Shown here: one piece after another, positions 3,113 through 56,438 of the stretch | How the letters are laid out: each line of letters starts with the position of its first letter | Numbering within the stretch: the first letter of the stretch is position 1 | Assembly (NCBI GenBank): GCA_028704885.1 | Contig: JAQWEN010000001.1 | Coordinates: 222,679 to 286,678, forward strand | Length of the DNA stretch: 64,000 nucleotides | DNA from: Candidatus Shapirobacteria bacterium | GTDB lineage: Bacteria; Patescibacteriota; Microgenomatia; UBA12405 | Direction of reading: 5' to 3' | Notes under the pieces: generated by a model | Database searches by the model: none | What the model saw: only the letters and a program-made list of their open reading frames with translations | What the model was told of the DNA's origin: nothing | Translations under genes and position numbers: made by a program

Positions 3113-3154
3113 TTCGCAAAGCTTCGGATGGGCGATGCCCTCCTAACTTTTTTG

Positions 3155-3227
3155 AGCCCAGATTGGAACTCGAATCCAAGACCTTCCCCTTACCAAGGGG
3201 ATGCTCTACCAACTGAGCTATCTGGGC
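3155..3227 (-). tRNA. tRNA-Thr (anticodon GGT)
   Basis: Reverse complement is GCCCAGATAGCTCAGTTGGTAGAGCATCCCCTTGGTAAGGGGAAGGTCTTGGATTCGAGTTCCAATCTGGGCT. It is a 73-nt cloverleaf with anticodon loop TTGGTAA. Confidence 0.75.
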
Positions 3228-3271
3228 ACAGTGATACTTTGGTATTGTATCAAAATAATTTAGAAAAAATG

Positions 3272-3344
3272 AGCCTGAGGTCAGATTTGGACTGACGACC
3301 TGCTGTTTACAAAACAGCTGCTCTACCACTGAGCTACTCAGGCA
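3272..3344 (-). tRNA. tRNA-Thr (anticodon TGT)
   Basis: Reverse complement is GCCTGAGTAGCTCAGTGGTAGAGCAGCTGTTTTGTAAACAGCAGGTCGTCAGTCCAAATCTGACCTCAGGCT. Anticodon loop TTTGTAA; canonical D and T arms. Confidence 0.75.
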
Positions 3345-5909: not shown

Positions 5910-6198
5910 ATTGTTTACCTCCTTAATATTAATTAAAAAGTATTTAAATAAAATGTCAAAAAATCAAAATCCTATCTTTAGGATAAATTTGATTTTTATT
6001 AAAGTAGATTTGAGATAATTTTTACAAATTTTTTAATAAATTATTCCTATTTATTGGCTAAATTTAAAAATGCAAAAAATTTAAATTTGAAATTTTTAAT
6101 TTTTAAATATTGATAAAAAGACGGAAGCTTACAGAAAAAAGACAATTCATTAATGGTGAAATTTTCCAATAAATTTAAAAAATGAATTTAAATTTAGC

Positions 6199-15037: not shown

Positions 15038-17203
15038 TTATTTCTTTTTACCCCAGTGTTGTTGAGAAGTGGCAATGAGCTTGGCACGTTGTTGGTTTTT
15101 ACAAGAAAGAGGTGGAAGAGTGGTGGCATAGAAAGGTTCAGTGGTTTCAGAATCAATAGAAAGTTTGGAAATAATTTGATATTTACCAATTTTAACTAAA
15201 TCTTCTGGAGGGAATTGAGCCCCAAATTCTTTAGCGAGGATGAAAGCATCTTGATTACCAACAACAAAGGACATAATCGAGCCAACGTTACCTAAAATAG
15301 CGTCTTGAATAGTGCGATCGAGCTGAGCCATATATTGATTGGCAATGATTAGGTTAAGTTTGAATTTGCGAGCTTCGGAAAGAATTTTAATAAAGGCTTC
15401 GGTGGCAAAATTTTGAAATTCATCGACATATAAATAAAAATCGGAACGATCTTCACTGGCCTGAAAAACACGATTCATAGCGGAAAGTTGGATTTGAGTG
15501 ATTAACATGGCACCAAGAAGGGCAGAATTATCTTCACCTAATTTACCAGTAGAAAGGTCGGCAATCAAAATTTTCTTTTGATCCATGATTTCTTGAATAT
15601 TTATTTTTGATTTGGGATGAGCAACGGTATTTCTAATATTAGTGGAAGAAATAAACTGACCGACTTTATTTAAAATGGGGGAAACGGCTTCATTTTGAAA
15701 TTTGGGATCCATACGATCAAATTCGTTGTGCCAGAAATTAATTAAAGTTTGATTAGTTAATTGAGAAACGACTCTTTCGCGAAAATTTTTGTTGGTTAAA
15801 ATTTCAACGATATGAGTTAAATCACTGCCAGGAGTGTTGACTAAGGTTAAAACAGAATTTCTTAAAATATGTTCAAGACGAGGGCCCCAGGAAATATTGC
15901 CGTAAAGTTTTTTGAAAATAGAAATAACACCGGAGGCAATTAATTCTTTTTGATTTTCATTTTTAGCTTCTAAAACATTGAGAGGATAGGCATATTCTGG
16001 ATCGGCGGGGTTGAAATAACAACAATCATTAATTCGGTTTGAAGGGATATAGTCAAGAATAGTGTTGCACAAATCGCCGTGAGGATCGATGACGGCGACA
16101 CCGCGACCTTTACGAATATCATCGATGGCCATGTTGGCAATAAGAGTAGTTTTACCAGTACCAGATTTACCAATGATATAAGTGTGACGGCGACGATCTT
16201 CGCCCTGTTTGATACCAAAAATAGAATCTTTATTTCTAAATTCAGTTTTAGCAAAAAAGGTTATTTCATTTTTTTGTTCTGGAGTAAGATTATCGGCAAC
16301 TGGAAGATTTTCTGGTGGATCGGAATAAAGCTTTTTACCCCAAGCAATATTGGGAAGTTTGGTATTTAAATTAGGAAAATGCCAAATAGCGGCTAACTCT
16401 TCGGTATTAAAAATCTGACTTTTTAATTTAATATTAAATTTACGAGTACAAATTGATTCCTGGAGTTTCTTTTTGGCAAAAAATCCAGGAGTAAAATTTT
16501 TAATAAAATTACCACGAGGATTAGTGTAGGCACCAAAAGAAGAAGAAACGGAAGCGACGAGTCCGGGATTATTACTAAAAAGATTAATTTGGGTATAAAG
16601 ACCGGGAAATTGAATTTTTTGTTCAAAAATGGCTTTGTCGGGGTGAGCACTACGAATATTTCTTTCTCGATCAATTAAAATTCCATTTTGAATAGTGCTA
16701 ACAATACCACCCTGCCAATTTTTTGGAGCACCGCTGAGAAGAATTTGGAAGAGAAAAAAATCTTTGGCATTGTTAGACCTTGAAAGAGGAGCCAAAACGG
16801 AAGTTAATGGATCAGTGTCCTTAAAATCTTTAGCGGTTTTAGTTGGATAATCATAGGATCGGCCTAAACCAAGCTGAGTAAAAGTGATTGGCAAGGCTGG
16901 ATCGAGTTCAAGCAAATAATCTTTGGTATCTCGAAGAATAGCAGTGGAATATTGAGCTAAAATTTGGGAACGAAGAAATTCACTGTTATCAGAAAGGGCA
17001 GCAACATAAAAATGAATTTGACCATCTTTTAAGACGATTTCCAGGGAAACAATAGTTTTTTTCTTGCCAATTAATTTTTCAAAAAAAGAAAGGTTAGAAA
17101 CTTGGGTAAAGTTTGAAAGCAGAGCAGACATAGACTCAAAAGTATGTTCATTGGTTTGAGGCAAGCGGACTTCAAAAATTGAAAGACTGGCCGTATCGGA
17201 CAT
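15038..17203 (-). CDS. FtsK/HerA-superfamily ATPase of the type IV secretion coupling-protein type (VirD4/TraG-like, TraM-recognition/DUF87)
   Basis: Walker A IIGKSGTGKTTLI followed by VIDPHGDL, and a Walker B LYVDEFQNF. At 721 aa with an N-terminal non-ATPase region it resembles the stand-alone T4SS DNA-binding ATPases common in CPR genomes. Confidence 0.55.
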   Translation of the reverse strand: MSDTASLSIFEVRLPQTNEHTFESMSALLSNFTQVSNLSFFEKLIGKKKTIVSLEIVLKDGQIHFYVAALSDNSEFLRSQILAQYSTAILRDTKDYLLELDPALPITFTQLGLGRSYDYPTKTAKDFKDTDPLTSVLAPLSRSNNAKDFFLFQILLSGAPKNWQGGIVSTIQNGILIDRERNIRSAHPDKAIFEQKIQFPGLYTQINLFSNNPGLVASVSSSFGAYTNPRGNFIKNFTPGFFAKKKLQESICTRKFNIKLKSQIFNTEELAAIWHFPNLNTKLPNIAWGKKLYSDPPENLPVADNLTPEQKNEITFFAKTEFRNKDSIFGIKQGEDRRRHTYIIGKSGTGKTTLIANMAIDDIRKGRGVAVIDPHGDLCNTILDYIPSNRINDCCYFNPADPEYAYPLNVLEAKNENQKELIASGVISIFKKLYGNISWGPRLEHILRNSVLTLVNTPGSDLTHIVEILTNKNFRERVVSQLTNQTLINFWHNEFDRMDPKFQNEAVSPILNKVGQFISSTNIRNTVAHPKSKINIQEIMDQKKILIADLSTGKLGEDNSALLGAMLITQIQLSAMNRVFQASEDRSDFYLYVDEFQNFATEAFIKILSEARKFKLNLIIANQYMAQLDRTIQDAILGNVGSIMSFVVGNQDAFILAKEFGAQFPPEDLVKIGKYQIISKLSIDSETTEPFYATTLPPLSCKNQQRAKLIATSQQHWGKKK

Positions 17204-17508: not shown

Positions 17509-17621
17509 AGGAAGTTAGCTTTGTGATATAATTTCCAAGTTAATAATTTTTAAATTTTTAACACGTATTTATCCTGGGTTAATTATTCCCTGTGTTAAAA
17601 ATCAACAATAAGGAAAACAAC

Positions 17622-18536
17622 ATGGCAGAAAAAAAGAAAGTCATAACAAAAACCGTCAACCGAAGCGGAAAATCTTTGGTTAAAAAGGCTTTAGTGGTTA
17701 AAACTAAAACTCAGAGCAATATTACTTCGGAAAACATCAAAAAGATGAATGAAAAAGTAGCGGCCGAGAAAATTGCTTTGGAAAAGAAAAAAAATGAAGT
17801 AGACGAGACCGCCGACATTAAAACTATGGCGGTTAAAGAAGATAAGAAATATAATTTAACGATTGGATTAAAAGATTTATTAAATGCTGGAAGTCATTTA
17901 GGACACAAAATTTCTAAAACTCATCCAAAAGCTTTGGAAAATGTTTACACTCAAAAAGATGGAGTCCAAGTTTTTGATTTAGTTAAAACTCTTGATGCTT
18001 TAGAAAAAGCCTGCAATTTTATTTACAATGCTAAAAGAAATGGTAAACAAATTGCTTTACTTGGAACTAAAAGACAAGCCAGAGAAGTTGTCCGACGAGT
18101 CGCTATGGAAGCTGGAGTTCCTTATGTTACTGACAGATGGTTAGGTGGAACTATCACTAATTGGGAACAAATTAAAAAGAATATTAAAAAATTAACTGAT
18201 CTTAAAGAAGGTTTAGAAAAAGGTAAATTTGTTGAGGCGACCAAAAAAGAATTATCGGTTATGAACAAGGAAATTGCCAGATTAGAAAAAATAGTCGGTG
18301 GTTTGGTTAATGTTGATAAATTTTTTGATATTTTGTTTGTAGTTGATGCTGGTTTTGAAAAAACAGCTATTAAAGAAGCTAAAATTCGAAATGTTAAAAC
18401 TGTCGGAATAGTGGATAGTGATGCTAATCCTTTCAAAATTAACTTTGCCATTCCAGCAAATGATGACAGCGTCAAAAGTGTAACTTTAATTGTCGAAGAA
18501 ATTGGTAAGGCAATTAAGGCTGCAGGAGTTAAATAA
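17622..18536 (+). CDS. rpsB: 30S ribosomal protein S2 with an N-terminal Lys-rich extension (or an internal start at 17826)
   Basis: S2 core LKDLLNAGSHLGHKISKTHPKA ... GTKRQAREVV ... TDRWLGGTITNW. An RBS-like AAGGAAA lies 8 nt before the ATG at 17622. The conserved core begins about 70 aa later, at the internal Met at 17826. Confidence 0.8.
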   Translation: MAEKKKVITKTVNRSGKSLVKKALVVKTKTQSNITSENIKKMNEKVAAEKIALEKKKNEVDETADIKTMAVKEDKKYNLTIGLKDLLNAGSHLGHKISKTHPKALENVYTQKDGVQVFDLVKTLDALEKACNFIYNAKRNGKQIALLGTKRQAREVVRRVAMEAGVPYVTDRWLGGTITNWEQIKKNIKKLTDLKEGLEKGKFVEATKKELSVMNKEIARLEKIVGGLVNVDKFFDILFVVDAGFEKTAIKEAKIRNVKTVGIVDSDANPFKINFAIPANDDSVKSVTLIVEEIGKAIKAAGVK

Positions 18537-18587: not shown

Positions 18588-19046
18588 ATGGATAATAACA
18601 AAATAATTGAATTAGTTAAAAAACTTCGAGCTGAAATGGGCTTGGGAATTATGGAAATTAAAGCAGCTTTGGAAGAGGCTGAAGGCGATGAAACAAAAGC
18701 CAAGCAAATTTTAAAAGAAAAAGGTTTTAAAAAAGCGGAAAGTAAGGCAGAAAGAGAAACTCATCAAGGAAGAGTGGCGACTTATACTCATGCCACCGGT
18801 AAAATCGGAGTCATGGTGGAATTGCTTTGTGAAACTGATTTTGTGGCTAAACATGAAGATTTTTTAGCCTTAACCAAAGAACTTTGTTTGCAAGTGGCCG
18901 CAATGAATCCGGAAACTGTTGAAGAATTAATGAAACAAGAATTCATTAAAGATCCAAGTAGAACCATTGAAGAAATGGTTAAAGCTTTGATTTCTAAATT
19001 CGGTGAAAATATGAAAATCAACCGCTTTGCTAGATTTGAAATCTAA
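18588..19046 (+). CDS. tsf: elongation factor Ts (short form)
   Basis: N-terminal UBA-like ELVKKLRAEMGLGIMEIKAALEEAEGDETKAKQILKEKG and the ETDFVAK core. It directly follows rpsB. Confidence 0.85.
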   Translation: MDNNKIIELVKKLRAEMGLGIMEIKAALEEAEGDETKAKQILKEKGFKKAESKAERETHQGRVATYTHATGKIGVMVELLCETDFVAKHEDFLALTKELCLQVAAMNPETVEELMKQEFIKDPSRTIEEMVKALISKFGENMKINRFARFEI

Positions 19047-19164: not shown

Positions 19165-19860
19165 ATGAAATATAAGGCTAAAAGTAAAAAATTGGGTAAA
19201 ATTAAATTCATGTTAACCCTCTTAGCTTTAAGTGGAGGATTATTGGTGGCAACAAAAATGGTGCAAACTAATCAAGAAAATAGAGGTAATGCTGTTGGTA
19301 GTACAGTTTACACGGGGTATTCGGTATTAAATAATACTTTGGAATGTAGAAATGCTGGTGGAATTTGCGCTACATTCAATACAGCTTCAACAAGTTATAG
19401 TTTATATAAAGGTACTTGTTCGGTAAATGGAGTTAGTGGAACTTTTATAACTGGAAAATGTGCTGGTGACTGGAGAACTACTTGCTGCAATACGGGAACA
19501 TCTTGCTATGTGGGAAATTATAGAATTCCTAATGGAGCTAAATTCTGCAATACTTTGGCTAAAACTAGAGTTTATGTTTGTAATAGTGGAAATATTGTTT
19601 ATCAAGGTTTAGATTGTTCTTCTAGGGGAAAAATTTGTGAAAATGGTAATTGTGTGACTAAACTTTCAGGGACTGATGCTGGGGCGGAAAAGTGTGTAAT
19701 TAAAGGTGGTAATTGTCAAACTAATTATGCTAGTTCAGGATTAATAGTTACACCGTCAGAGGGGACTGTGTGTATGATCGGGAATAAATTAGGAACTTTT
19801 AAATCTGGTTTGTGTAGTGGTAAATACATAACTGGATATCGATGTTGCGTTCCTAATTAG
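19165..19860 (+). CDS. secreted Cys-rich protein (paralog of the N-domain of the 21571 protein; ends in a CCVPN motif)
   Basis: N-terminal signal anchor (FMLTLLALSGGLLVA), then about 30 cysteines in spaced patterns. The C-terminal YRCCVPN resembles ARCCVPD in the protein at 21571. Confidence 0.5.
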   Translation: MKYKAKSKKLGKIKFMLTLLALSGGLLVATKMVQTNQENRGNAVGSTVYTGYSVLNNTLECRNAGGICATFNTASTSYSLYKGTCSVNGVSGTFITGKCAGDWRTTCCNTGTSCYVGNYRIPNGAKFCNTLAKTRVYVCNSGNIVYQGLDCSSRGKICENGNCVTKLSGTDAGAEKCVIKGGNCQTNYASSGLIVTPSEGTVCMIGNKLGTFKSGLCSGKYITGYRCCVPN

Positions 19861-19887: not shown

Positions 19888-20439
19888 ATGATAAATTTCA
19901 CCGACGTAAAAACTAGAATGGAAAAAATTAGTGCTTTGTTTGCTAATGATATTGCTTCAATAAGGACAGGAAGAGCAACTCCAGGATTAATTGAAAATGT
20001 AGTAGTGACGGTTTATAACGGCCAAAAAATGAAATTAATTGAATTAGGATCGATTGGAGTGCCAGATGTTCGCAGTTTAACTTTTGAACCATGGGATCAA
20101 CCAATAATAAGGGAAATTGCTAATGGAATTTCGGTGGCTAATATTGGAATGACACCAGTAGTAGATGGAAGTATTATTAGGATGAGCTTGCCAATGTTGA
20201 CAGTGGAACAGAGAGAAGATTATATAAAACTTTTGGGAAGAAAATTGGAGGGAGCTAGGGTGATGATTAGAGATGCTAGAGCTGATTTCAGATTTGATTT
20301 ACAAAAAGCTAAACAAGACAAATCGGTTTCAGAAGATGAACTTAAAAGAGATGAAACTGAGTTACAAAAAACAACTGATCTTTATGTGACCAAATTGGAA
20401 GAGATGGCCAAGAAAAAAGAATTGGAGATTAGAGGATAA
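19888..20439 (+). CDS. frr: ribosome recycling factor
   Basis: RRF family pattern: MEKISALFANDIASIRTGRATPGLIENVVV ... C-terminal coiled coil. Length 183 aa. Confidence 0.9.
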   Translation: MINFTDVKTRMEKISALFANDIASIRTGRATPGLIENVVVTVYNGQKMKLIELGSIGVPDVRSLTFEPWDQPIIREIANGISVANIGMTPVVDGSIIRMSLPMLTVEQREDYIKLLGRKLEGARVMIRDARADFRFDLQKAKQDKSVSEDELKRDETELQKTTDLYVTKLEEMAKKKELEIRG

Positions 20440-21479: not shown

Positions 21480-21570
21480 AATCAGCTGATTTTCAGGTGT
21501 TTTTGGAACTGATACGTTGACATGGTTTTTTAAAAGTGCTTTACTTTTCTATAAGATATTTTTTATAAAA

Positions 21571-23337
21571 ATGAAACAAAACAAAGGTATTTCCCAAATT
21601 ATGGTGATGCTTGTTATGTTGGTTTTAGCAATAGCACTTCCAATAACGACAAGATTAGTACAAAAGAGTCTGGAAAATAGAAGTAAAGCGACTATAGCTT
21701 TTTTAGATTATGCTGAAGTATGCACTGGAGATGCTAGTTGTAAACCACCATCTGGTCAAACTTCTGGTTTTTGTACAGATACTACACATTTAACTAATTG
21801 GCCATCTTTTAATAAAGGAGCTCCTCCTGTTTGTTCTTATGGATGGGGAAATAGTAGTAACACTAGACGTAATGAGGCTTGTATATCAGTAGGTGGTAGT
21901 TGTACTGAGGCATATGCAACTCCTTGGGGAAGTGATTGTAAAACAGATAAAGGTGTTGATGGTACTGTGGTTTGGAATTTGTGTTTGGCTGACCCCTATC
22001 TTGGTGTTGCAAGATGTTGTGTCCCTGATACTGTTTATGCTCAATGTGGGACTATTAATGATTCATGTGTTAAAGGAACGCTTACTCAAATGGATGATAC
22101 GGATACTCAATTTAAATGGAAATGTACGGGTTATGTAAATAAAGTAAGTGTTGAATGTAGTGCAGCTAAACCGGTCTGTACTACCGGTGATAAACAATGT
22201 TCCGGAACTAAACTTCAAACTTGTACCAATAATGCTTGGTCTGACACCACTGATTGTGGAGCTCTAGGTTGTAACTCAACTATTAAAGCTTGTAATGCTC
22301 AAGTCTGTACTACCGGATCGACGCAATGTTTGAATAGTAATACTAAACAAACTTGTGCCAATAATGCTTGGGGTGGAAATGAAACTTGTACTTATGGTTG
22401 TAGTGGTGGTACTTGTAGTAATCCAATTTGTGGTGCTACCGATAAGAAATGTTTAGATAATATATTACAAAAGTGTAATGCGGCTAGAACTGGTTGGGAA
22501 ACCGACACTGATTGTGGAGCTTTAGGCTGTAATTCAACTTCTAAAACTTGCAATGTATGTGTAAATGGATATCAAAAATGTAGTACGAGCGACAATTATT
22601 TTACCTGTAATGATGGTCAATGGTCGACTTCAACTACTGATTGCACAGGTGATAAAGTTTGTACTGATGGTGCAAATTCTGACTCTGTTTGTCATGATCC
22701 TGAATATGTGGCACCAAAATTAAATATGCAGATAGCTTTGTTGGGAGTAGGTGTTTCTGGTACGACACCTAAATGTTTGGGAGATATTAAATTAAAGATA
22801 AATGTATCTAAAGTTGGCCAGCCAGGAATTACTAGAGAAATAACAGCAACTAAGGTTGATGGTAAATTTTCAACTATAAAAACGGCTGGTGATGGTTATC
22901 AAGTTTATCAAGTTAGTAATTTTGCTCTTGATAACACTTTTGCATTAACAGATAAAATTTATATAAATATTACCGGGGCAAATAATAGTAATAATTTGAA
23001 ATTATTGACAACTCTTTATGGTAAAAATAATCAAACCGATGGTTTTGTGCCACAAGATGAAAGTCAGATATTAGTTTCTTCTTTAGTCAACAACACTTTA
23101 AATTTATATAATTATCCGATTTTAAATGGTGATATCGGTTCAGAAACTGCCAGTACTCAAGGAGATGGTGTTATAAATGGCTTTGATTTTGTGCATATGA
23201 AAAATCAATGGAATGAAAGTGTGACAGCTAATGAAACATTGAGGTCTGATTTGAATGGAGATTGTTTTGTCGACAGTATTGATCTTCAAATTTATAAGAA
23301 TTCGACATCGGTGCAATATAATGCAAAAACTTTTTAA
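21571..23337 (+). CDS. large secreted Cys-rich repeat protein with a C-terminal dockerin-like Ca-binding module
   Basis: Signal anchor MKQNKGISQIMVMLVMLVLAIALPI. An N-domain ends in RCCVPD, followed by at least four ~40-aa Cys repeats (CTTGxxQC ... QTCxNNAW ... DCGALGCNST.K.CN). The C-terminus has two dockerin-like loops (GDGVINGFDFVHMK; DLNGDCFVDSIDLQIYK). The ORF-track start at 21517 lies upstream of the signal peptide, so the ATG at 21571 is preferred. Confidence 0.55.
   Translation: MKQNKGISQIMVMLVMLVLAIALPITTRLVQKSLENRSKATIAFLDYAEVCTGDASCKPPSGQTSGFCTDTTHLTNWPSFNKGAPPVCSYGWGNSSNTRRNEACISVGGSCTEAYATPWGSDCKTDKGVDGTVVWNLCLADPYLGVARCCVPDTVYAQCGTINDSCVKGTLTQMDDTDTQFKWKCTGYVNKVSVECSAAKPVCTTGDKQCSGTKLQTCTNNAWSDTTDCGALGCNSTIKACNAQVCTTGSTQCLNSNTKQTCANNAWGGNETCTYGCSGGTCSNPICGATDKKCLDNILQKCNAARTGWETDTDCGALGCNSTSKTCNVCVNGYQKCSTSDNYFTCNDGQWSTSTTDCTGDKVCTDGANSDSVCHDPEYVAPKLNMQIALLGVGVSGTTPKCLGDIKLKINVSKVGQPGITREITATKVDGKFSTIKTAGDGYQVYQVSNFALDNTFALTDKIYINITGANNSNNLKLLTTLYGKNNQTDGFVPQDESQILVSSLVNNTLNLYNYPILNGDIGSETASTQGDGVINGFDFVHMKNQWNESVTANETLRSDLNGDCFVDSIDLQIYKNSTSVQYNAKTF
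22249..22554 (+). repeat. intragenic direct repeat (two ~48-nt copies at 22249-22296 and 22507-22554) within the Cys-rich repeat gene
   Basis: ACTGATTGTGGAGCTCTAGGTTGTAACTCAACTATTAAAGCTTGTAAT versus ACTGATTGTGGAGCTTTAGGCTGTAATTCAACTTCTAAAACTTGCAAT; the copies differ at 7 of 48 nt. Confidence 0.6.
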
Positions 23338-23353
23338 AAATTAAACCTAAACA

Positions 23354-23962
23354 ATGGAAAACAATAATAAAATACTGAAAATTTTGATACCAATAATAGC
23401 AGTAGTAATTATTTTTGAAAGTGTAATGTTGGTATCTGGTTTAGAAAAAAGTAATATTGTAACAAAAGAATCGACTGGTTCGGCGGAAACAAAAAAGGAG
23501 GAAGTGGTAGTTGGTAATGCTTTTGATTTGGTTTTTTCGACTGATTCTAAAGAAATGAAGGTTGATAAAAATTATCAAATTAAGTTGCAAGGTTTAGTAA
23601 AAGAAAAAAATACTTTGGATGCAATTGATATTTCAATCAAATATGATGCTAAAAATTTAGATATTACTAATTTGGTTTTTGATGAAAAATTACCGAAACC
23701 ATTTATAGGTCAAATAATAAAAGAAGACGGAATGATAGTGGTGAAATATTTGATAGAAACCAAACAGGGGATGACTTTTAATGTTAATGACGTTGTCTCT
23801 TTGGTTAGTTTTAATGTTAAAACAAGAGTGGCTGGCAATTATGAATTTGAAGTTGCTACTGGTAATGAAGATAAAAAATTTGCTACTATGTTTATAGAAA
23901 ATACTTCGGCTAAGGCTTTGCCTTTCTCAGGTAATAAATTAGAAATTAATGTAATTAAGTAA
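23354..23962 (+). CDS. membrane-anchored cohesin-like (beta-sandwich) domain protein
   Basis: N-terminal TM (ILIPIIAVVIIFESVMLV), then a segment AFDLVFSTDS ... IKLQGLV ... IDISIKYDAKNLDITNLVFDE that resembles the cohesin pattern (a.v.v.v ... l.yDp..L.v..v..G). Confidence 0.4.
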   Translation: MENNNKILKILIPIIAVVIIFESVMLVSGLEKSNIVTKESTGSAETKKEEVVVGNAFDLVFSTDSKEMKVDKNYQIKLQGLVKEKNTLDAIDISIKYDAKNLDITNLVFDEKLPKPFIGQIIKEDGMIVVKYLIETKQGMTFNVNDVVSLVSFNVKTRVAGNYEFEVATGNEDKKFATMFIENTSAKALPFSGNKLEINVIK

Positions 23963-23964
23963 AA

Positions 23965-24678
23965 ATGAAAAAGACAATATCAAATTTATTATTGACGGGA
24001 GCTTTTTTATTGTTGTCTACTAAAGTTGTAGCTGCGGCTGACCCAAAGTTATATTTTAGCCCAGCAACTGGGAGCTATCATGTTAACGATACTTTTGCAG
24101 TGACGATGATGATTGATTCTGGGGCGATGGTGGCTGGAGCAGCAGATTTAGTGGGAACTTTTGATCCGGCGTTGTTAGAGATTACAAGTATAGAAACTGC
24201 TACTGATATGGCATTTAATAAGAGTGTTAGCGGTGGTTCTTGTTCAAATAATTCTACTGCAGAATGGGCTACTGGAAAATTCTCGGCTGTTTGTTATTCA
24301 TCAATGACAGCTGGTGATCAGATAACTACTGGAAATTTAATGGTGATTACTTTTAAGGCAAAAGCAGTGGGTACAGCAACGGTTGGTTATACTTGTGATG
24401 GTACTTCTGGTGATTCAAATATAACTCAAACATCACCAATTAAAGATATTATAGTTTGTTCAGCTAATGGCAGTGGTTCTTATACAATAACAGCTGCAAC
24501 TGGGGATGCGGCTACTCCAACACCAACAACTGGTTCTTCAACCTCTACTTCCACAACAGTTACACCTACAACTGTTCCAACACAATTACCTCAGACAGGA
24601 GGGGTGGCAACAACTGTTGGTTTGATTGTTTTCGGAGCTATTAGTTTTGCCTCAGCATTGTTTTTGAAATTTCTATGA
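23965..24678 (+). CDS. cohesin-like surface protein with a Thr/Pro linker and a C-terminal LPXTG sortase sorting signal
   Basis: Signal peptide ending AAADP. A cohesin-like AVTMMIDSGAMVAGAADLVGTFDPALLEITSIETAT. A linker TPTPTTGSSTSTSTTVTPTTVPTQ. The C-terminus is LPQTGG, then a hydrophobic stretch, then K at the end. Confidence 0.5.
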   Translation: MKKTISNLLLTGAFLLLSTKVVAAADPKLYFSPATGSYHVNDTFAVTMMIDSGAMVAGAADLVGTFDPALLEITSIETATDMAFNKSVSGGSCSNNSTAEWATGKFSAVCYSSMTAGDQITTGNLMVITFKAKAVGTATVGYTCDGTSGDSNITQTSPIKDIIVCSANGSGSYTITAATGDAATPTPTTGSSTSTSTTVTPTTVPTQLPQTGGVATTVGLIVFGAISFASALFLKFL

Positions 24679-25343
24679 AAGGTAAGGTTAACTTAAAAAC
24701 GATAATTATTTTTGCTATTTTGATTGTAGTAATTGTATTGTCGGTTTTATTAGTTGGGAAAGCCAAAACTTTTTTAAGTGGAGCAACAGCTGATTATGAA
24801 CCACAAAATTTATTGGCCGTTCCTAAAGAAGATGGTAAAACAGCAATGGTTTCTTGGACAACTGATAAAGAAGTGAAGGCTTCTGTTTTTTACGGAACTA
24901 ATATGGCAAGTTTGCTTTTAATGGCAGAAGATGTGGAAGTGGCAGTTGATCATAATATTTTATTAACAAATTTAAAGAGTAATACGACTTATTACTATAA
25001 AATAGTGGTCGACAATGACAATATTTTTGATAATGGGGGAATGATGTATAACTTTAAAACTAATGGTAGCGATGAAGTATTAGAACCAGTAGTTACAATT
25101 GAACCGACATTAGTTCCAACTTTAACAGCTTCTTCATCAAGTAGTTCAGCGATTAGTTCATCAACTTGCAACAGAACAACAGATTATAACAAAGATGGGG
25201 TAATTAATAGTGTTGATTATATTTCCTGTACAAAAGGAATAATTACTCCAACAGCTGAGGACGCTTGTGCTGGTGATTATAATAAAGATGGAGTAACTAA
25301 CAGCTTAGACAGAATAAAGTGTTTACAAGACACCAAAAGATAG
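24675..25343 (+). CDS. FN3-like domain protein with a C-terminal canonical double dockerin repeat
   Basis: N-terminal TM; an FN3/PAP-N-like MVSWTTDKEV ... TYYYKIVV. Two dockerin Ca loops, TDYNKDGVINSVDYISC and GDYNKDGVTNSLDRIKC, fit the D-x-N-x-DG-x-V/I-N-x-x-D consensus. Confidence 0.5.
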   Translation: MKGKVNLKTIIIFAILIVVIVLSVLLVGKAKTFLSGATADYEPQNLLAVPKEDGKTAMVSWTTDKEVKASVFYGTNMASLLLMAEDVEVAVDHNILLTNLKSNTTYYYKIVVDNDNIFDNGGMMYNFKTNGSDEVLEPVVTIEPTLVPTLTASSSSSSAISSSTCNRTTDYNKDGVINSVDYISCTKGIITPTAEDACAGDYNKDGVTNSLDRIKCLQDTKR

Positions 25344-27979: not shown

Positions 27980-27987
27980 GGTATAAT
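27980..27987 (+). promoter_or_regulatory. -10 element GGTATAAT upstream of ybaB
   Basis: GAGGTATAAT lies 31 nt upstream of the ybaB ATG and is a member of the recurring motif. Confidence 0.25.
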
Positions 27988-28018
27988 AATTAAAAATTAA
28001 TAATTAAGAATTAATAAT

Positions 28019-33920: not shown

Positions 33921-34904
33921 ATGAAAAAAGGAATCATTATTGGTTTGTTTTTGGGAGTATTAATAACTGGATTGATCTTTATATTTCTTAATAAAAAAGA
34001 AGTTGTAAGTGTCAAAAAAGAAATCGTTAATGAGGAATCAGTGGTGACTAAAGTAGTGGAAGAATCAACTCCAAGCGTGGTAACGATTAGAACAGAACAA
34101 GACGTAGGAACAGGTTTTATTATTAGCAGCGATGGTTTGATTGTGACCAATAAACATGTAGTGGCTGATGTAACAGTTAGTTATAAAGTAGTGATTGGAA
34201 AAGATGAAGTAGTGGAAGTTAAAAATATTTATAGAGACCCCTTAAATGATTTGGCTATTATTAAGATAGAAAAAACTAACTTAAATATGGTTAATTTAGG
34301 TGATTCGGATAAATTAAAAGTTGGCCAATCAGTAATTGCGATTGGGACAGCTTTAGGGGAATTTAGATCAACAGTGACAACTGGAGTGATTTCGGGATTG
34401 GGCAGAGGGATTACGGCCGGAGCTGTTGGTGAAACAGAAAAATTGGATAATGTAATTCAAACTGATGCGGCTATTAATCCTGGTAATTCCGGGGGTCCAT
34501 TATTTAATTCGAGCGGCGAGGTAATTGGGGTAAACGTGGCGGTATCGCAGAGTGGTCAAAATATTGGTTTTGCTTTACCGATTAATTTAATTAAAGAATC
34601 CATTGCTTATTTTAGAAAAACAGGGGAGTTTGAAAGGCCTTATTTAGGCGTGGGCTATAAAATGATAAAAGATTCTGGGGCTTGGGTGCAAAGTGTTTCT
34701 GAAAATAGTCCCGCATTTAAGGCTGGAATTGAAAAAGGAGATATTATTACCGAAGTCGATTCGGAAAAATTAATAGATAGTGATAGCGGTGATTTAGTGA
34801 AAGTGATTAATACAAAAAAGATTGGTGATGTAATTGAAGTAAAAATCTGGCGAGAAAAAATAGAAAAAACTATTAAAGTGACTTTAGAAAAGAAAATTAA
34901 TTAG
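33921..34904 (+). CDS. htrA: HtrA/DegP-family serine protease (S1C) with PDZ
   Basis: Catalytic triad context HVV, D, and GNSGGPLFN, plus a C-terminal PDZ. N-terminal TM. Confidence 0.8.
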
Positions 34905-35628
34905 TTTTATTTTCTTCTTCTGGTTGGTCAAGGACGGTGAGTTCGAGAAATAAATCGTCTAAATTACCCTGCATAATGCTGTCCAAGTTATTAAATGTTT
35001 TGTCGATTCTATGGTCTTTTATTTGATTTCTGGGGTAATTATATGTTCGGATTTTATCGGCACGAGTTGATTGACTGATATTGGCACGACCAGCAGAGAC
35101 TTGAGAGGCGCGTTTTTCTTCTTCCAACTGATAAAGTTTGTTTTTAAGTAATTCAAGAGCAATTTCTCGATTTTGTTGTTGATAACGTTCGGTGCGGACA
35201 TCAAACATTAAACCAGTGGGTTTATGAACTAAATGAATGGCAGTGGAAACTTTATTAACATTTTGACCACCATTACCGCCAGCGCGACAGGCGGTGATGG
35301 TAACATCTTCCATTCTAAAATTGACCTCTTTAGAGTCGATTTTAGGCATGACAGCGATTGAAGCGGTAGAAGTTTGAATACGGCCTCTTTTTTCAGTTTC
35401 TGGAATACGTTGAACACGATGAGTGCCAGCTTCGTATTTTAATTGATTATAAGCATCAAAGCCGGTTATTTGGATGATAAAGCCGTCGATTTGACGGACT
35501 TTCCAACCAACTTTATTAGCATAGCGGATATACATGTTCATTAAATCTTGGGCCCAAAGAGTTGCCTCTTGGCCGCCAGGACCGGGGTGAAATTCCATAA
35601 TGGCAATGTTGTTGTTGATATTAGGCAT
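34897..35628 (-). CDS. prfA: class I peptide chain release factor, RF1 type (PET tripeptide, GGQ), lacking N-terminal domain 1
   Basis: [23 protein letters not shown] aligns to the RF1 domain 2 start (AGTGGDEAALFAGDLFRMY). It has [14 protein letters not shown] (PxT), GGQ (GGNGGQNVN) and DHRIDKT. An in-frame stop lies 58 nt upstream and rpmE is the upstream neighbour. Confidence 0.7.
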
Positions 35629-35716
35629 AATTTTAAATTTAAAATTTTTAATTTTTAATAAAATGTAATAAAAAAACCGCCAAATTTACAAGAAATTAAA
35701 GCGGTTTTTAGAGTAG

Positions 35717-35971
35717 CTAATTTGATTTTTTGACTGTTTTTTTTGCAGCTTTAGCAGCAGCATATTTTTTACCTTGGTTGACTTTTTCTTTAAACTTATC
35801 AATTCTTCCTTTAATGTCGACAAATTTTTGTTGACCAGTAAAGAAAGGATGACATTTAGAACAAACTTCAACGTCGATTTTTTCCAGAGTTGAACCAGTG
35901 GTAAATTTATTGCCACAGGCACAAGTGACTTGGCAATTATCAAAATATTTAGGATGAATTCCTTGTTTCAT
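35717..35971 (-). CDS. rpmE: 50S ribosomal protein L31 with a Lys/Ala-rich C-terminal tail
   Basis: [29 protein letters not shown] ... [13 protein letters not shown] matches the L31 zinc-ribbon family. The tail is [16 protein letters not shown]. Confidence 0.85.
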
Positions 35972-36042: not shown

Positions 36043-37281
36043 TTAATTTATAATTTTTATTAGTTCATCAAAGCTAACTAATTTCTGTTCAGTAGTGATT
36101 AAATTTTTAACAGTAATTTGATTGTTTTTAGCTTCGTCGGGGCCAATAATGGCTAGATAATTAATTCCTAAAGAAAGGGCATATTTAATTTGTTTTGCCA
36201 ATTTGTCATTATCTGGATAAACAATGGAAGCAATATCTTTATCTCGAAGATTGGAAACTAAATTTAAAATATTAGATTCGGTTTCTGGTCCAAAGTTAGC
36301 GACTAAAATTTTAGTTTTTGATTGATTAGCTTGGGGAAGGAGATTGAGTTCTTGAATAACATCGACAACTCGTTCGAAACCAAAAGCAAAACCAACGGCA
36401 GGAATATTAGGACCACCTAGGGTGGAAACTAAATTGTCATAACGACCACCACCGCCAATGGCACCGATTTTTGGCTCGGTAACACTAACTTCAAAAATAG
36501 TTCCGGTGTAATAATCGCAACCACGGACTAAGGTGGGATCGAAAATATAAGAATTATCAGGGAGACCAAGGGCTTCTAATTTATTTAAAACTAATTTTAA
36601 TTTTTCGTCTGGTTGAGCTTCTTTGATATATTTAAAAAGGTTAGTAATTTGGCTTTGAGACAAAGCTTTAGACTTGAGTTCATTTATTACTCCATCTTCA
36701 CCTATTTTGCCTATTTTATCGAGAGATTGAAGTACTGAATTTTGATCTTTTTCAATAGCACTTTTAGCTAAAATATCAAAAAGAACTTGACGACTATTTA
36801 TAGAGATAATGGCGTTTTTAAAATTTAGTTTTTGAACGCCAGCATAAATTATAGAAATGATTTCAGCATCAGCAATCGGGGATGAGGTGCCAAAAATATC
36901 AATATCACATTGGACAAATTCCCGATAACGACCTTTTTGAGTGTTTTCGGCACGCCAGACTGGTTGAATTTGATAACGTTTAAATGGAAGCTGAAGGTCA
37001 TTAGAGTAAATAGCTAAAACTTTGGCAGCAGGTACAGTTAAGTCATAACGAAGACCGATTTCGCGATCACCGTTATCTTTAAAAAAGTAACCAAGTTTAT
37101 CATCGGTTTCGTTACTATATTTACCTTTTAAGACAGAAGCGTATTCAAGAGCCGGGGTTTCGAGGGGTAAAAAGCCATAATTCTCAAAAACTTCAATTAA
37201 GGTATTTTTGACATAATTACGAATACCCATGTCTTTAGGCAAAAAATCTCGAAAACCTTTTAGTGTTTGTGGTTTGGTCAT
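36043..37281 (-). CDS. hisS: histidyl-tRNA synthetase
   Basis: Class II motifs, e.g. QIQPVWRAENTQKGRYREFVQCDIDIFG, and a C-terminal anticodon-binding domain. The start MTKPQTLKGFRDFLP at 37281 is preferred. Confidence 0.85.
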   Translation of the reverse strand: MTKPQTLKGFRDFLPKDMGIRNYVKNTLIEVFENYGFLPLETPALEYASVLKGKYSNETDDKLGYFFKDNGDREIGLRYDLTVPAAKVLAIYSNDLQLPFKRYQIQPVWRAENTQKGRYREFVQCDIDIFGTSSPIADAEIISIIYAGVQKLNFKNAIISINSRQVLFDILAKSAIEKDQNSVLQSLDKIGKIGEDGVINELKSKALSQSQITNLFKYIKEAQPDEKLKLVLNKLEALGLPDNSYIFDPTLVRGCDYYTGTIFEVSVTEPKIGAIGGGGRYDNLVSTLGGPNIPAVGFAFGFERVVDVIQELNLLPQANQSKTKILVANFGPETESNILNLVSNLRDKDIASIVYPDNDKLAKQIKYALSLGINYLAIIGPDEAKNNQITVKNLITTEQKLVSFDELIKIIN

Positions 37282-37323
37282 GATGTATTTTAAATGAAAG
37301 CGACTTTGAAGTAAAATAGAGCA

Positions 37324-38046
37324 ATGAATACAGTGCAATTAGATTTTGAAAATTGGGAATTGGTAGTGGATTTGGAGGGTGGCAGGATTGATAGTTTAAA
37401 AAATAAAGGAATTTTAATCTTGGGTAGTTTTGAAAGAATAGATAGTAAAAGAGGTAATACTCATGTTTGCGTACCTAATTTTGCTAACGATGGAGTTAAA
37501 AAATATGGTTTGCCTTTTCATGGATATTTTAGAACTGCACCGTGGGTGTTGGTGCAAAAAACAGAAAATTTATTGGAAATAAATTGCGAAACGATGGGTT
37601 TTGATGTTCATCAAATTTTTTCTTTAAATAAAGAATATTTTAGTCAAAAATTGACAGTGGAAAATAAAAATGAAGAAGAAAAGCCGGTGAATGTGGCAAT
37701 CCATAATTATTGGTCAAGCGAATTAGGATGGCAGGGAGCGACTTTAAATGGTTTTGATTTAAGTGTGGGGATAAAAAATAATGATTTTACAAATTTACGT
37801 CAGTTAAATGATATTGATATTCCAGGAAAACCTTTAATTAAATGGCAACTAATGGGTTTTAATTACGCTAAATTATGGACAGGTTTTTTAGAAGAGGGAA
37901 ATAATAAAATTTTTGATAATAATTATCTTTGTATTGAGCCGATTATGGAAAAAGATGAAAATTTCTTTGGAAGCGAGGAATCAATGCTACAGTCAAAAAC
38001 AAAAATTGAACTAAGGCAGATGATTGGGGTGGTATATCGGACTTGA
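37324..38046 (+). CDS. aldose 1-epimerase-family (glucose-6-phosphate 1-epimerase-like) protein
   Basis: VVDLEGGRIDSLKNKG ... HVCVPNFAN ... GLPFHGYFRTAPW resembles the mutarotase/YeaD fold. Confidence 0.35.
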   Translation: MNTVQLDFENWELVVDLEGGRIDSLKNKGILILGSFERIDSKRGNTHVCVPNFANDGVKKYGLPFHGYFRTAPWVLVQKTENLLEINCETMGFDVHQIFSLNKEYFSQKLTVENKNEEEKPVNVAIHNYWSSELGWQGATLNGFDLSVGIKNNDFTNLRQLNDIDIPGKPLIKWQLMGFNYAKLWTGFLEEGNNKIFDNNYLCIEPIMEKDENFFGSEESMLQSKTKIELRQMIGVVYRT

Positions 38047-43502: not shown

Positions 43503-44316
43503 AATAAAAAAAAAGATAAATCTAAAATTGTTTTTTGGAGTAATTTTGTTGTTATTTTTGACGTTTTTAGTGTTATTAAGTTTCTTTAAAAAAGACAATA
43601 GTGATAAAAATTTAGACTACAAATTGGGAATAATTGCAAATGATGGAATTACTTTGGTGTCAATATCTAATGAAAGAAAAATGATTAATGTTTTAAATTT
43701 AGGGGAAGAATCTTCGGAAGAATTTAAAAGAATTGTAGGAAAAGAAAATAATATAGATTTAATTAAACATATTTATTGGTATAACTTTGGATTTTATCCA
43801 GATAAAATTTTGAATTTAAATTCAACTAGTCAATGGAAAAATAATGATGTTTTGATTGAAAATTTAGGTTTTTTAAATTGGATTAGATATAAAAAAGATT
43901 ATGGAAAAATGCTTTTAAAACAGGAGAAAATAAATGGTTTATTAAATGAAAATAGATTGATTTTGGATGAAATACTGGTTCGTGATTTTTCAGAAAGTAA
44001 ATTAAATAATGAAGAGTTAAGACTGTCTATTTTTAATAATACAAACGAAAGTGGTTTAGCTGGTTTTATAACAAAAAGATTAGAATGGTCGGGATTTTCG
44101 GTAGTTTCGAATGATAATGATACTCAAAAAATAAATAATTGTTTGATTGTTTATGGTAATAAAGTTGATCAAAATTATGGTTGGAAGTTGATAAATAAAA
44201 TTTTTAATTGTGATAAAAAATTTGATGAAAATTTAAATGAAAATGAATTGGAACTATATTTTGGTGATAATTTTGCTTCAGTGATAAAATACTCAAGCTA
44301 TACAATTAATAATTAA
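43489..44316 (+). CDS. membrane-anchored LytR_C-domain protein
   Basis: N-terminal TM, then a C-terminal LRLSIFNNTNESGLAGFITKRLEWSGFSVVSND that fits the LytR C-terminal domain pattern. Confidence 0.4.
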   Translation: MRNTRIKKKINLKLFFGVILLLFLTFLVLLSFFKKDNSDKNLDYKLGIIANDGITLVSISNERKMINVLNLGEESSEEFKRIVGKENNIDLIKHIYWYNFGFYPDKILNLNSTSQWKNNDVLIENLGFLNWIRYKKDYGKMLLKQEKINGLLNENRLILDEILVRDFSESKLNNEELRLSIFNNTNESGLAGFITKRLEWSGFSVVSNDNDTQKINNCLIVYGNKVDQNYGWKLINKIFNCDKKFDENLNENELELYFGDNFASVIKYSSYTINN

Positions 44317-44350
44317 AAATTAATAATTAAAAATTAATAATTAAGAATTT

Positions 44351-46785: not shown

Positions 46786-47664
46786 ATGGATAATCTATTT
46801 TAAGCTGAATCTATTTATATTCAATATATAAAATAATACCTTAAGATAGGCATATTATTAATATAGAAGGGGAATGCAGGGGAATTGGAGATCAGAATTT
46901 CGGTTTGTCAGATATCAGATTTCAGCTAAAACAAGACAATAATGAAGCTAAACTAATTAAATAAATTAAAGCTAAATTAGGTTCAAAAAAAGATAGTAGA
47001 CGAACAGGGCAGAGGGGAGTCCTATAATATACAACATCCTATAATATTTTCACGAATTATCCTATAGTTTTCACGGAGCAGGTGATACAGTGTGATATAG
47101 TCTCTGTGGAAAACTTGTATTCGGCCAAGTGTATCAAAATGAACTCATCAAGAGGGAGGAGTATGGGTTAATTAGACGTTAATTAATAATGAAGAATTAA
47201 TAATTAGATGAAAATATCAGAGGAGAGAGAAGAGTTTTAATTCCTATCTCCTAGCAGAAGGCGGTTCAATATGCTATGTCGCACAATGTATCTTTTGCGA
47301 CTCTATCTAAAGATTTAGGCAGGGGGAGTACCACTTTGGTGGATTAATTTTAAATTTTTAATTTACAATTTTTCTAACTTATTTTTATCTAATTATTCTT
47401 ATTTATTAATTATGGTTAAATTCCCCATTTGACTTCCCGGCTTATAAATTGTCTTATCAGTCTCAAATTCTAGGACTTGACTCCCCTATGCCTTTTTCGA
47501 ACAGGTGACTTTGATGTTTTTGCCTAAAGATAGGCAAATTGAACCTAAAACGTCACCAGAGGCCCTAGAAATGAAGATTGTATAATTGCCGATTACTTTT
47601 ACCTGTTGTTTATTAAATTAACTGTAAGGTCTTGGCAAAACTGACTATCATGATAAGATAGTTT

Positions 47665-48612
47665 ATGGAAAATGATTTAGACATTTTGATTAGACGATTT
47701 TTGGAACACCTAGAAATTGAAAGAAATTGTTCAAGATTAACAATTAGAAATTATCAACATTATTTAGATGTTTTAGTTCATTTCTTGTCAGAGGAAAATA
47801 AAGACAAGAAGTTAACAATAAATAATATAACTTCAGATGTAATAAGAAGGTTTAGACTATTTTTAGCCAGACAGAAGGGAAGTATCGGAGAAATGAAATT
47901 GGTAACTCAGGGTTATTATGTAATTGCTTTAAGATCGTTTTTAAAATGGTTAGTAAAGAATGATTATAAAGTACTGCAGCCGGAAAAATTAGATGTGCCA
48001 AGAACTAAGGATCATTCACTTAAATTTTTAGATGGGGATCAGATGGAGAGACTTTTAGTCCAACCACTCCCCTCTAGCAAAAGCGGTTTTAGAGACAGAG
48101 CAATTTTGGAACTTTTATTTTCAACTGGATTGCGGGTGTCGGAATTGGTTCGCTTGAATCGTGATCAAATTAATTTAAAAACTCGAGAGTTCGGAGTGAT
48201 TGGAAAAGGCGGAAGATCAAGAGTGGTCTTTATTTCTATTCAAGCAGCTGAACATGTCGCAAAATATTTGATGAGCCGGGAAGACAAATATAAACCCCTG
48301 TTTATAAGAAATCTAAGACCGAATGAAATTCCGGTTAGTGATGAAGCAGTAAGGTTAACGGCCAGATCAATTCAAAGATTAGTAAAACATTATGTAAAAA
48401 CGGCTAATTTGCCAGTGGAGGCAACACCACATACGTTAAGACATTCGATGGCGACTGATCTTCTTAGAGCTGGAGCAGATTTGAGATCGGTTCAAGAAAT
48501 TTTGGGTCATAAGAACATTGCCACGACTCAAATTTATACTCATGTAACCGATGCCAGATTACGTGAAATTCATAATAAATATCACAGTGGTAACAGAGGT
48601 GAGAATAAATAA
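47665..48612 (+). CDS. tyrosine recombinase, XerC/XerD-like (phage-integrase family)
   Basis: C-terminal catalytic region HTLRHSMATDLLRAGADLRSVQEILGHKNIATTQIYTHV (R ... HxxR ... Y) and an N-terminal SAM-like core-binding domain. Confidence 0.8.
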   Translation: MENDLDILIRRFLEHLEIERNCSRLTIRNYQHYLDVLVHFLSEENKDKKLTINNITSDVIRRFRLFLARQKGSIGEMKLVTQGYYVIALRSFLKWLVKNDYKVLQPEKLDVPRTKDHSLKFLDGDQMERLLVQPLPSSKSGFRDRAILELLFSTGLRVSELVRLNRDQINLKTREFGVIGKGGRSRVVFISIQAAEHVAKYLMSREDKYKPLFIRNLRPNEIPVSDEAVRLTARSIQRLVKHYVKTANLPVEATPHTLRHSMATDLLRAGADLRSVQEILGHKNIATTQIYTHVTDARLREIHNKYHSGNRGENK

Positions 48613-55448: not shown

Positions 55449-56438
55449 ATGGAAGTTAAGTCGCAAATTAGTAATTTGAAAAATCATCAGATTTTTTTGG
55501 AGACAAAAAGGTTAATTGATGTTTTTTTACAAAAAAAAGCTTTTATAAAAGTAGATACTCCCCTACTTTCGCCCAAATTAATTCCAGAGTCATATTTGGA
55601 AATTTTTGAGACAGAAAATTTATATTCTGATAATAAAGAGAAGTTATATTTGATCCCTTCACCGGAATTATTTTTAAAGAGATTGATCGTTAAGGGAATT
55701 GGTAATTGTTATTCATTGGGAAAATCTTTTCGAAATAATGAGCCGGTAGAGAAAAAACATTCCTATGAATTTACAATGTTAGAGTTTTATCGAGTAAATG
55801 CAGATTATTTTGATATTGCGGAAGATGTAATGAATTTAATTAGATTTATAACTAAAGAATTATTTGGAAAAGAAATTATTAATTATCAAGGAAAGATTAT
55901 TGATTTGGGAAAATTTGAAAAAATTACTGTGGCCGAGGCTTTTAAAAAATATGCCGAAATAACGGATATTTTTGATCATAAAGAATTTTTTAAACAGGCA
56001 AAAGAAAAAGGTTATCGAGTGGAAAATATGGATTATACCGATGTCTGGTCGCAAATTTATGGAATAGAAGTGGAGCCAAATTTGGGAAAAAATGGCTTAG
56101 TAACTTTTATTTATGAATATCCACCTGAGTTAGCGGCCATTATTAAAATTAATGAGAAAAATATTGCCGAAAGATTTGAATTTTATATAGAAGGAATTGA
56201 AATGGGTAATTGCGGTAACGAAGGAGTAATTATCGAAGAATATAAAAAAAGATTTGAAAAAGATATTGATATTCGGCAAAAACTGGGGTTAATAAATTAC
56301 AAAGTAGATGATGAATTTATTGAGATTTTGGAAAAATTACCAAAATGTGCCGGAATTGCAATTGGAGTGGACAGATTGGCAATGATTTTTGCTGATGTAA
56401 AAAGTATTAACGATTTAAAATTAATTACAATTGAATAA
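55449..56438 (+). CDS. epmA: EF-P lysine beta-lysyltransferase EpmA (GenX/PoxA; LysRS class II catalytic-domain paralog)
   Basis: Class II aaRS motifs without an anticodon-binding domain (329 aa): LGKSFRNNE ... EFTMLEFYRV ... GIAIGVDRL. Confidence 0.7.
   Translation: MEVKSQISNLKNHQIFLETKRLIDVFLQKKAFIKVDTPLLSPKLIPESYLEIFETENLYSDNKEKLYLIPSPELFLKRLIVKGIGNCYSLGKSFRNNEPVEKKHSYEFTMLEFYRVNADYFDIAEDVMNLIRFITKELFGKEIINYQGKIIDLGKFEKITVAEAFKKYAEITDIFDHKEFFKQAKEKGYRVENMDYTDVWSQIYGIEVEPNLGKNGLVTFIYEYPPELAAIIKINEKNIAERFEFYIEGIEMGNCGNEGVIIEEYKKRFEKDIDIRQKLGLINYKVDDEFIEILEKLPKCAGIAIGVDRLAMIFADVKSINDLKLITIE

Follow-up and report, generated by a model that had tools for sequence, protein, structure and literature searches.

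A release factor 1 without domain 1 as the probable housekeeping termination factor of Candidatus Shapirobacteria and relatives

The 64,000-nt stretch of contig JAQWEN010000001.1 analysed here (the window) belongs to a Candidatus Shapirobacteria bacterium, a member of the Microgenomates within the Candidate Phyla Radiation (CPR), and carries an open reading frame (ORF) for a class I release factor of only 243 amino acids (aa). We have confirmed that this protein is a release factor 1 (RF1) devoid of the N-terminal domain 1 (about 105 residues). Judging from its sequence and genomic setting, we consider it likely that the ORF is the housekeeping RF1 of the cell, a prfA ortholog terminating translation at UAA and UAG without domain 1 and without a 10-residue hairpin of domain 2. 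The trait is not peculiar to one genome: it spans a large part of the Microgenomates and is found in hundreds of relatives. The gene and its N-terminus lie as follows:

34897..35628, minus strand: coding sequence of the RF1 without domain 1 (domains 2, 3 and 4 only), ATG to TAA, 243 aa
35608..35628, minus strand: N-terminus MPNINNN (family consensus MPTINPN), aligned with the LPKDPND domain 1/2 linker of full-length RF1

Because the start of the protein aligns with this linker, the truncation falls exactly at the boundary between domains 1 and 2. The NCBIfam models tell the same story: the two RF1 equivalogs match from inside the profile to near its end, NF001859 over positions 104-343 of 347 (276.4 bits, cut-off 400) and TIGR00019 over 110-356 of 361 (268.9 bits, cut-off 423.25). 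The RF2 model TIGR00020 gives 198 bits (cut-off 370), the PrfH model TIGR03072 63.7 bits over residues 52-198 only (cut-off 166.65) and the ArfB model 42.6 bits over residues 100-135 only, that is, the GGQ loop (cut-off 100). In Pfam, the second half of PCRF (99-194 of 194) and the complete RF-1 domain (3-116 of 116) are matched. RF1 chains of the Protein Data Bank align from residue 86 (T. maritima), 105 (T. thermophilus) and 110 (E. coli), with E values of 1e-62 to 1e-47 and about 40% identity across the shared region; the PrfH chains are matched by the GGQ domain only (E 2e-14 and 9e-08). An earlier sequence-only reading of this DNA had described an RF1-type factor with PET and GGQ motifs, without any of domain 1 and without the SPF motif or frameshift of RF2. 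All of this is borne out: the profiles match only from 104 or 110, there is no upstream coding room, PET stands at the tripeptide position and the ORF is uninterrupted. The comparison with TIGR00019, TIGR00020 and TIGR03072 which that reading had proposed was run, and RF1 comes out best.

The elements that carry this assignment, and the two places where the core itself departs from RF1, are:

35563..35583, minus strand: GPGGQEA, tip of helix alpha-5, residues 16-22; G18, G19 and E21 are invariant
35395..35403, minus strand: PET, the RF1-type PxT 'anticodon' tripeptide, residues 76-78, found as a motif
35263..35271, minus strand: GGQ catalytic motif, residues 120-122, invariant in the family
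35479..35484, minus strand: site of the 10-residue domain-2 hairpin deletion, between G49 and F50 (about 151-160 of E. coli RF1)
35374..35376, minus strand: Gln85 in place of the His of GRIHTS (E. coli RF1 His197), from the alignment

The positions of E. coli RF1 follow the standard numbering (PAT at 188, His197, GGQ at 233). In established RF1 structures, the tip of helix alpha-5 reads the first base of the stop codon. Across 121 members of the Shapirobacteria-type family (family A, described below), the P and T of PxT are invariant and the middle residue is I, V, E, A, L, T or S. The YN(F/Y)P...DHR segment is also present, as in RF1. With RF1-type recognition elements of this kind, a housekeeping UAA/UAG factor is the best reading of the ORF. 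Its fold points the same way: an AlphaFold2 model built from a 50-sequence alignment (predicted local distance difference test score 81.7) is matched best in Foldseek by the domains 2-4 of ribosome-bound, open RF1 (template modelling score 0.75, root-mean-square deviation about 4 Å), and the closed RF1 crystal forms fit it less well (0.55-0.58).

The immediate surroundings of the gene are:

35629..35716, minus strand: rpmE-RF1 spacer, 88 nt, with stops in all three frames
35665..35709, minus strand: terminator-like hairpin directly after rpmE, 15 pairs plus an internal loop, then U7; -12.1 kcal/mol
35628..35659, no strand: AT-rich heptamer tandem repeat TAATTTT, 4.6 copies, abutting the RF1 start codon, from a repeat search
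35717..35971, minus strand: rpmE (bL31), upstream neighbour in conserved synteny
36043..37338, minus strand: hisS, upstream of rpmE, conserved neighbour, given as its longest ORF
33921..34904, plus strand: htrA-like serine protease gene, convergent, conserved neighbour; its 3' end overlaps that of RF1 by 8 nt

The nearest upstream in-frame stop is a TAA at 35686..35688, 60 nt before the ATG, and no start codon lies in between; the sequence-only reading had placed this stop at 58 nt, and the stop is there, at a distance that counts out at 57 to 60 nt. The hairpin is far more stable than expected by chance (z -4.8; 0 of 200 shuffles as good) and, with the U7 tract, marks the spacer as a genuine intergenic region and not a decayed coding sequence. 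One could imagine that another gene encodes domain 1 as a small protein of its own, which joins the short RF1 in trans. Nothing direct speaks for such a split gene, and a hidden Markov model of domain 1, made from nine full-length RF1s, found nothing in the six frames of the window and of three syntenic loci: the best match (E 0.03) is at chance level and sits inside the rpsB ORF (17583..18533). Moreover, domain 1 is dispensable in E. coli, and sister lineages show its gradual shortening (66-77, 21 and 0 aa) rather than a fission. We thus hold a split gene to be highly improbable.

The short RF1 is widespread. In a large protein collection, family A counts at least 120 protein clusters at 64-95% identity with lengths of 226-251 aa, the exception among the clusters listed being one 211-aa entry that covers 84% of the query; where names are given, they are Candidatus Shapirobacteria, Patescibacteria or 'release factor-like protein'. 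Two contigs encode the identical 243-aa protein, and one of the two belongs to the NCBI metagenome-assembled genome (MAG) GCA_028685145.1. A scan of GTDB, with one genome per species, recovered close relatives in 33 distinct genomes, all with MPTINPN-like starts and an in-frame stop 0-17 codons upstream, so that the comparison with related CPR genomes suggested by the sequence-only reading gives the same start throughout. Many of these loci (L005, L008, L009, L011 and others) come from GTDB species-representative MAGs entitled 'uncultured Gammaproteobacteria', evidently third-party assemblies that are mislabelled; their RF1 is 83-93% identical and in the same synteny. The ratio of nonsynonymous to synonymous substitution rates (dN/dS), over 369 pairs among 34 gene copies, has a median of 0.07 and a maximum of 0.22: purifying selection on the short RF1 is strong. 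That the sequence is metagenome-derived might have raised the suspicion of a faulty assembly or annotation, or of a pseudogene in decay. This is refuted by the data: (i) the same start appears in independent assemblies from many samples and in the 33 species genomes, (ii) in a relative with 66% identity only 15 nt separate rpmE from RF1, and (iii) the gene is under strong purifying selection and its predicted fold is confident.

A second short family (family B, Gottesmanbacteria type) was collected with the 235-aa sequence P0122 as query and holds at least 120 clusters of 232-235 aa at 79% identity or more; one named member is from Candidatus Gottesmanbacteria, and several members lie on contigs of 1.0-1.2 Mb. 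The 10-residue hairpin deletion in domain 2 is common to both short families and to intermediates. A library clustered at 50% identity contains ordinary RF1s of 350-370 aa at 40-49% identity and a few other short forms, P0122 being one of the short forms, as well as representatives with a reduced N-terminus (P0123, 256 aa; P0124, 303 aa; P0127, 331 aa). In the sister lineages domain 1 becomes progressively shorter, from 66-77 aa to 21 aa to none. In a neighbour-joining tree of the shared core (100 bootstraps), families A and B each receive a support of 100, their grouping with the reduced-domain-1 forms 61, and A plus B alone 29. The tree is compatible with one complete loss or with two; the shared N-terminus (M-x-T-I-N-P-[ND], EF-R-x-GPGG) fits a single loss and hints at it. 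Other candidates from this library were set aside. Representatives with N-termini of 12-50 residues that begin inside the LLPKDPND linker look like gene fragments or miscalled starts of ordinary RF1 and were not counted as natural truncations. P0121 (477 aa) and P0125 (481 aa) each contain two release factor stretches, and a fusion of two factors was rejected in favour of internal tandem duplications; the exact duplication of about 115-130 residues inflates their scores, and both are probably assembly artefacts. Among 150 representatives there is a lone RF2-type sequence (P0242), which belongs to an unrelated organism and is an ordinary RF2 of full length.

Gene order links the short RF1s to the longer ones. 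The arrangement rpmE-RF1, followed by a convergent htrA, is common to families A and B and to forms of 306-318 aa that keep a 66-77-aa remnant of domain 1 (including Cerribacteria). In most of these loci hisS lies further upstream, and loci read with 10-kb flanks have ctpA, ssb and rpsF downstream of RF1-htrA as well. Occupying the slot of longer RF1 genes, the short gene is a prfA ortholog, not PrfH. The rpmE neighbourhood is also that of Firmicutes-type prfA loci, and with rpmE adjoining upstream the context that the sequence-only reading had recognised is kept. That reading had further noted a PrfH-like architecture in what it took for the housekeeping RF1, and both halves of its judgement are supported: the PrfH score is far below its cut-off and no rtcB neighbour is found, RF1 being flanked by rpmE upstream and the convergent htrA downstream; orthologous synteny with longer RF1s, lineage-wide fixation and purifying selection agree with a housekeeping role.

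The same observations weigh on the idea that the short protein is a specialised, PrfH-like or rescue paralog and that a canonical full-length RF1 encoded elsewhere performs routine termination. PrfH likewise has no domain 1 (PMC1586002), the 243-aa protein does not reach the cut-offs of the RF1 equivalogs, and relatives go under the name 'peptide chain release factor-like protein' at NCBI; in addition, our search for other release factors covered only the window and about 9 kb recovered past its left edge. Within that range, however, no second factor appeared, either in the 64-kb window (tblastn of the 243-aa protein) or in the roughly 9 kb to its left. The protein has canonical recognition elements in both PxT and helix 5, and it scores 276 bits with RF1 against 63.7 with PrfH. 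Finally, the short form is fixed in every sampled relative at a dN/dS of 0.07, in the rpmE-RF1-htrA slot of the longer RF1s of sister lineages and with no rtcB beside it. A paralog of this kind is in our view unlikely, and a housekeeping RF1 remains the preferred explanation.

The use of stop codons is consistent with a conventional division of labour. Among 62 ORFs of the window, 42 end in TAA, 11 in TAG and 9 in TGA (one TGA-ending ORF being spurious, as it runs over tRNA genes), and the conserved genes are intact under the standard code. As all three codons are used, the cell needs RF1-type and RF2-type activities, and with TGA as a stop an RF2 should exist elsewhere in the genome. Could the short factor instead be the sole class I release factor and read all three stops? 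TGA is used with no RF2 in the 64-kb window, and family A carries unusual substitutions near the decoding elements (Q85, R81, R200 and K204). Yet the PxT tripeptide and the RF1-type recognition residues are conserved, there is no SPF-like element, and family B has the same architecture without the changes at Q85, R200 and K204. The window represents less than 10% of a genome, and the absence of prfB from it therefore means little. We give such an omnipotent factor very little credence next to a UAA/UAG-specific RF1.

Several observations nevertheless weigh against a routine RF1, which the protein fails to resemble in three respects: domain 1, equivalog score and His197. The score under both equivalog cut-offs (NF001859 and TIGR00019) is expected, being consistent with a missing third of the protein. 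The near-universal His at the position of E. coli His197 (69 of 73 full-length RF1 representatives, the other 4 having Gln) is replaced by Gln in most of family A (95 of 121 members). This residue is reportedly important for A-site binding in E. coli RF1, according to work attributed to Field et al. 2010. The deleted domain-2 segment also includes E155 and H156, residues of E. coli RF1 reported to contact the anticodon stem-loop of the P-site tRNA (PMC6076264). A second, full-length prfA may also lie elsewhere, as the search took in the window and about 9 kb to its left only. Family B keeps His (119 of 119 members), Gln and Thr at the equivalents of E. coli 197, 314 and 318; family A has Arg at Q314 in 121 of 121 members (R200 here), Lys at T318 in 120 of 121 (K204) and a basic residue at position 81 (R81). 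Net charges of +4.3 and +7.9 were obtained for the cores of families A and B, against an average of +0.7 (standard deviation 5) for the corresponding region in 73 full-length RF1s; domain 1 of the latter adds -6.5. This more basic core suggests an electrostatic compensation for lost binding energy; on the other side, the difference does not exceed about one standard deviation of the full-length RF1s and takes no account of phylogeny or proteome composition.

How might such a factor work? Decoding in the 30S A site would fall to the module formed by domains 2 and 4, whose helix-5 tip (GGxE) and PxT loop would recognise the stop codon; as with canonical RF1, domain 3 would then bring the GGQ loop round into the peptidyl-transferase centre. 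We infer this activity and its codon specificity from the conserved motifs. The factor has no domain-1 arm, the part that contacts the base of the uL11/bL12 stalk and is adjacent to RF3. Its recruitment would accordingly not depend on the stalk, departure from the ribosome would be spontaneous or proceed through subunit rotation and ribosome recycling factor (RRF)/EF-G, and the basic core may make up for the binding energy lost. Published work on E. coli offers a precedent: RF1 deprived of domain 1 keeps codon-specific release, and the truncated protein is functional in vivo (summarised in PMC1586002 from Mora et al. 2003). The same source describes domain 1 as the least conserved release factor domain and reports that prfC is not found in small genomes (PMC1586002). 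Because bL12 touches domain 1 during RF1 delivery and RF3 still recycles RF1 without domain 1, through subunit rotation (PMC6076264), the specific loss would be the stalk-side contact. The sequence-only reading had expected altered recycling of the factor: the literature backs this in part only, and a necessary effect on RF3 recycling is less certain than the loss of stalk contact.

A broader scheme can be put forward tentatively, although we find it rather doubtful. Much of the Microgenomates might possess a minimal termination system, with class I factors cut to the domain 2-3-4 core (the RF1 core as seen here, RF2 perhaps likewise). Such a system would lack RF3 and would not need the uL11/bL12 stalk, and the basic core would offset the lost binding energy. 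In the Shapirobacteria branch, residues remodelled on the decoding side (Gln for His197, and Arg/Lys close to the switch region) would also contribute to the offset. If true, this would fit the other ribosome reductions of the lineage and a half-length EF-Ts encoded in the window.

The tsf gene in question (18588..19046, plus strand) encodes 152 aa and matches TIGR00116 over 6-145 of 293 and Pfam EF_TS over 1-76 of 204. This EF-Ts without its C-terminal half is the second shortened translation factor of the window. The recycling factor is not reduced:

19888..20439, strand not given: RRF gene, normal length, from profile matches

Between tsf and frr, at the usual position of pyrH, an ORF of 231 aa (19165..19860, plus strand) has no Pfam match at E<=1e-5 and no NCBIfam match at E<=0.01. 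The ribosomal protein S2 gene (rpsB, 17592..18536, plus strand) carries an N-terminal extension of about 90 residues, the models matching 91-311 only; its start (GTG) may be miscalled. The longest hisS ORF begins with TTG and encodes 431 aa, compared with 412 aa in the NCBI call at the identical locus, which puts the true start probably at about 37281; the HisS model match begins at residue 24. The gene prmC is not immediately downstream of RF1 in the window.

AT-rich heptamer tandem repeats of 4-6.6 copies occur at 35628..35659, 44304..44349, 27984..28018, 47180..47206, 47346..47372 and 6076..6108. They are mostly intergenic (47180..47206 and 47346..47372 lie inside the 46785-47665 gap), and two of them abut start codons, those of RF1 and yebC. 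Different periodic repeats of 7-9 nt are found in the 40 nt before the RF1 ATG of relatives (loci L004-L037), a region without any GGAGG-like Shine-Dalgarno motif in these loci, and no Shine-Dalgarno-like motif was seen in 35628..35659 here. In this lineage, the repeats before RF1 may form part of the promoter or of the initiation region. A sigma-70-like promoter whose -10 element would end 2 nt before the ATG was rejected, being no better than in shuffles.

Other genes of the window may be mentioned briefly. An ORF of 329 aa (55449..56438, plus strand) holds only the catalytic core of a class II aminoacyl-tRNA synthetase (tRNA-synt_2) and overlaps a radical-SAM gene (56431..57255, plus strand); the pair could be an EpmA/EpmB-like EF-P modification pair. 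A gene run at 21517..25343 (plus strand) encodes proteins of 606 aa with a dockerin, 237 aa with a cohesin and 222 aa with a dockerin, which suggests a cell-surface assembly system. A TrwB/HerA-like coupling ATPase of 721 aa (15038..17203, minus strand) and a tyrosine recombinase of the Xer or phage-integrase type (47665..48612, plus strand) are possibly related to type IV secretion or a mobile element, the recombinase possibly being simply XerC/D. Two spurious ORFs of more than 100 aa (2948..3295, plus strand, and 3021..3329, minus strand) overlap three tRNA genes (Ser, Thr, Thr); the spurious TGA stop counted above belongs to one of the two.

The short RF1 must finally be set against known release factors. 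Canonical bacterial RF1 and RF2 are described as always possessing the N-terminal helical, GTPase-facing domain, and the exceptions listed are PrfH, ArfB, ICT1, C12orf65 and MRPS35 only (PMC6514570); a study of ribosome reduction in the CPR does not mention release factors (PMC9297842). Within the literature searched, we found no published description of a housekeeping RF1 without domain 1, and the sequences are already in databases as 'peptide chain release factor 1' or 'release factor-like protein'. The equivalog models miss the short RF1s, hence the latter name from annotation pipelines, and completeness estimates based on marker genes could undercount them. The exceptions known so far (PrfH, ArfB and ICT1) have accessory or rescue roles. 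In this uncultivated lineage as a whole, it would be the routine RF1 that does without domain 1, apparently since long ago and under strong purifying selection, which should be moderately surprising to a termination specialist. Translation factors would thereby join the list of reduced ribosome components in CPR bacteria. With this family, nature provides a way to test how domain 1, the contact with the bL12/uL11 stalk and the coupling to RF3 contribute to termination; the family also offers minimal RF1 sequences ready for biochemistry, cryo-electron microscopy and cell-free systems.

With bacterial RF1 (PrfA; TIGR00019/NF001859) the protein shares domains 2, 3 and 4, the PxT and GGQ motifs and the helix-5 GGxE tip; it differs by the missing domain 1 and 10-residue domain-2 hairpin, by Gln at the His197 equivalent and Arg/Lys at the equivalents of E. 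coli Q314/T318, by a positive net charge, by scores under the equivalog cut-offs and by the lack of an adjacent downstream prmC. PrfH/RFH (TIGR03072), a natural class I homolog without domain 1, has the same architecture, with a codon-recognition-like domain and GGQ. Its recognition loops are divergent, however, and it is sporadic, horizontally transferred and always beside rtcB, whereas the short RF1 has canonical RF1 loops, is vertically fixed and sits in the prfA slot. ArfB (YaeJ), ICT1 and mtRF-R are GGQ-domain peptidyl-tRNA hydrolases that also have no release factor domain 1; unlike the short RF1, which keeps domains 2 and 4, they have no codon-recognition domains and sense empty mRNA channels with a basic C-terminal tail. 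Truncated E. coli RF1 and RF2, as related in PMC1586002 and PMC6076264 from Mora et al. 2003, consist of the same domains 2-4 and perform codon-specific release in vitro; they are laboratory constructs in a host that has RF3, and carry a growth cost. The short RF1, by contrast, lost its domain 1 in nature and long ago, and other changes in its sequence went along with the loss; what E. coli RF1 tolerates as a laboratory deletion has been repeated by evolution.

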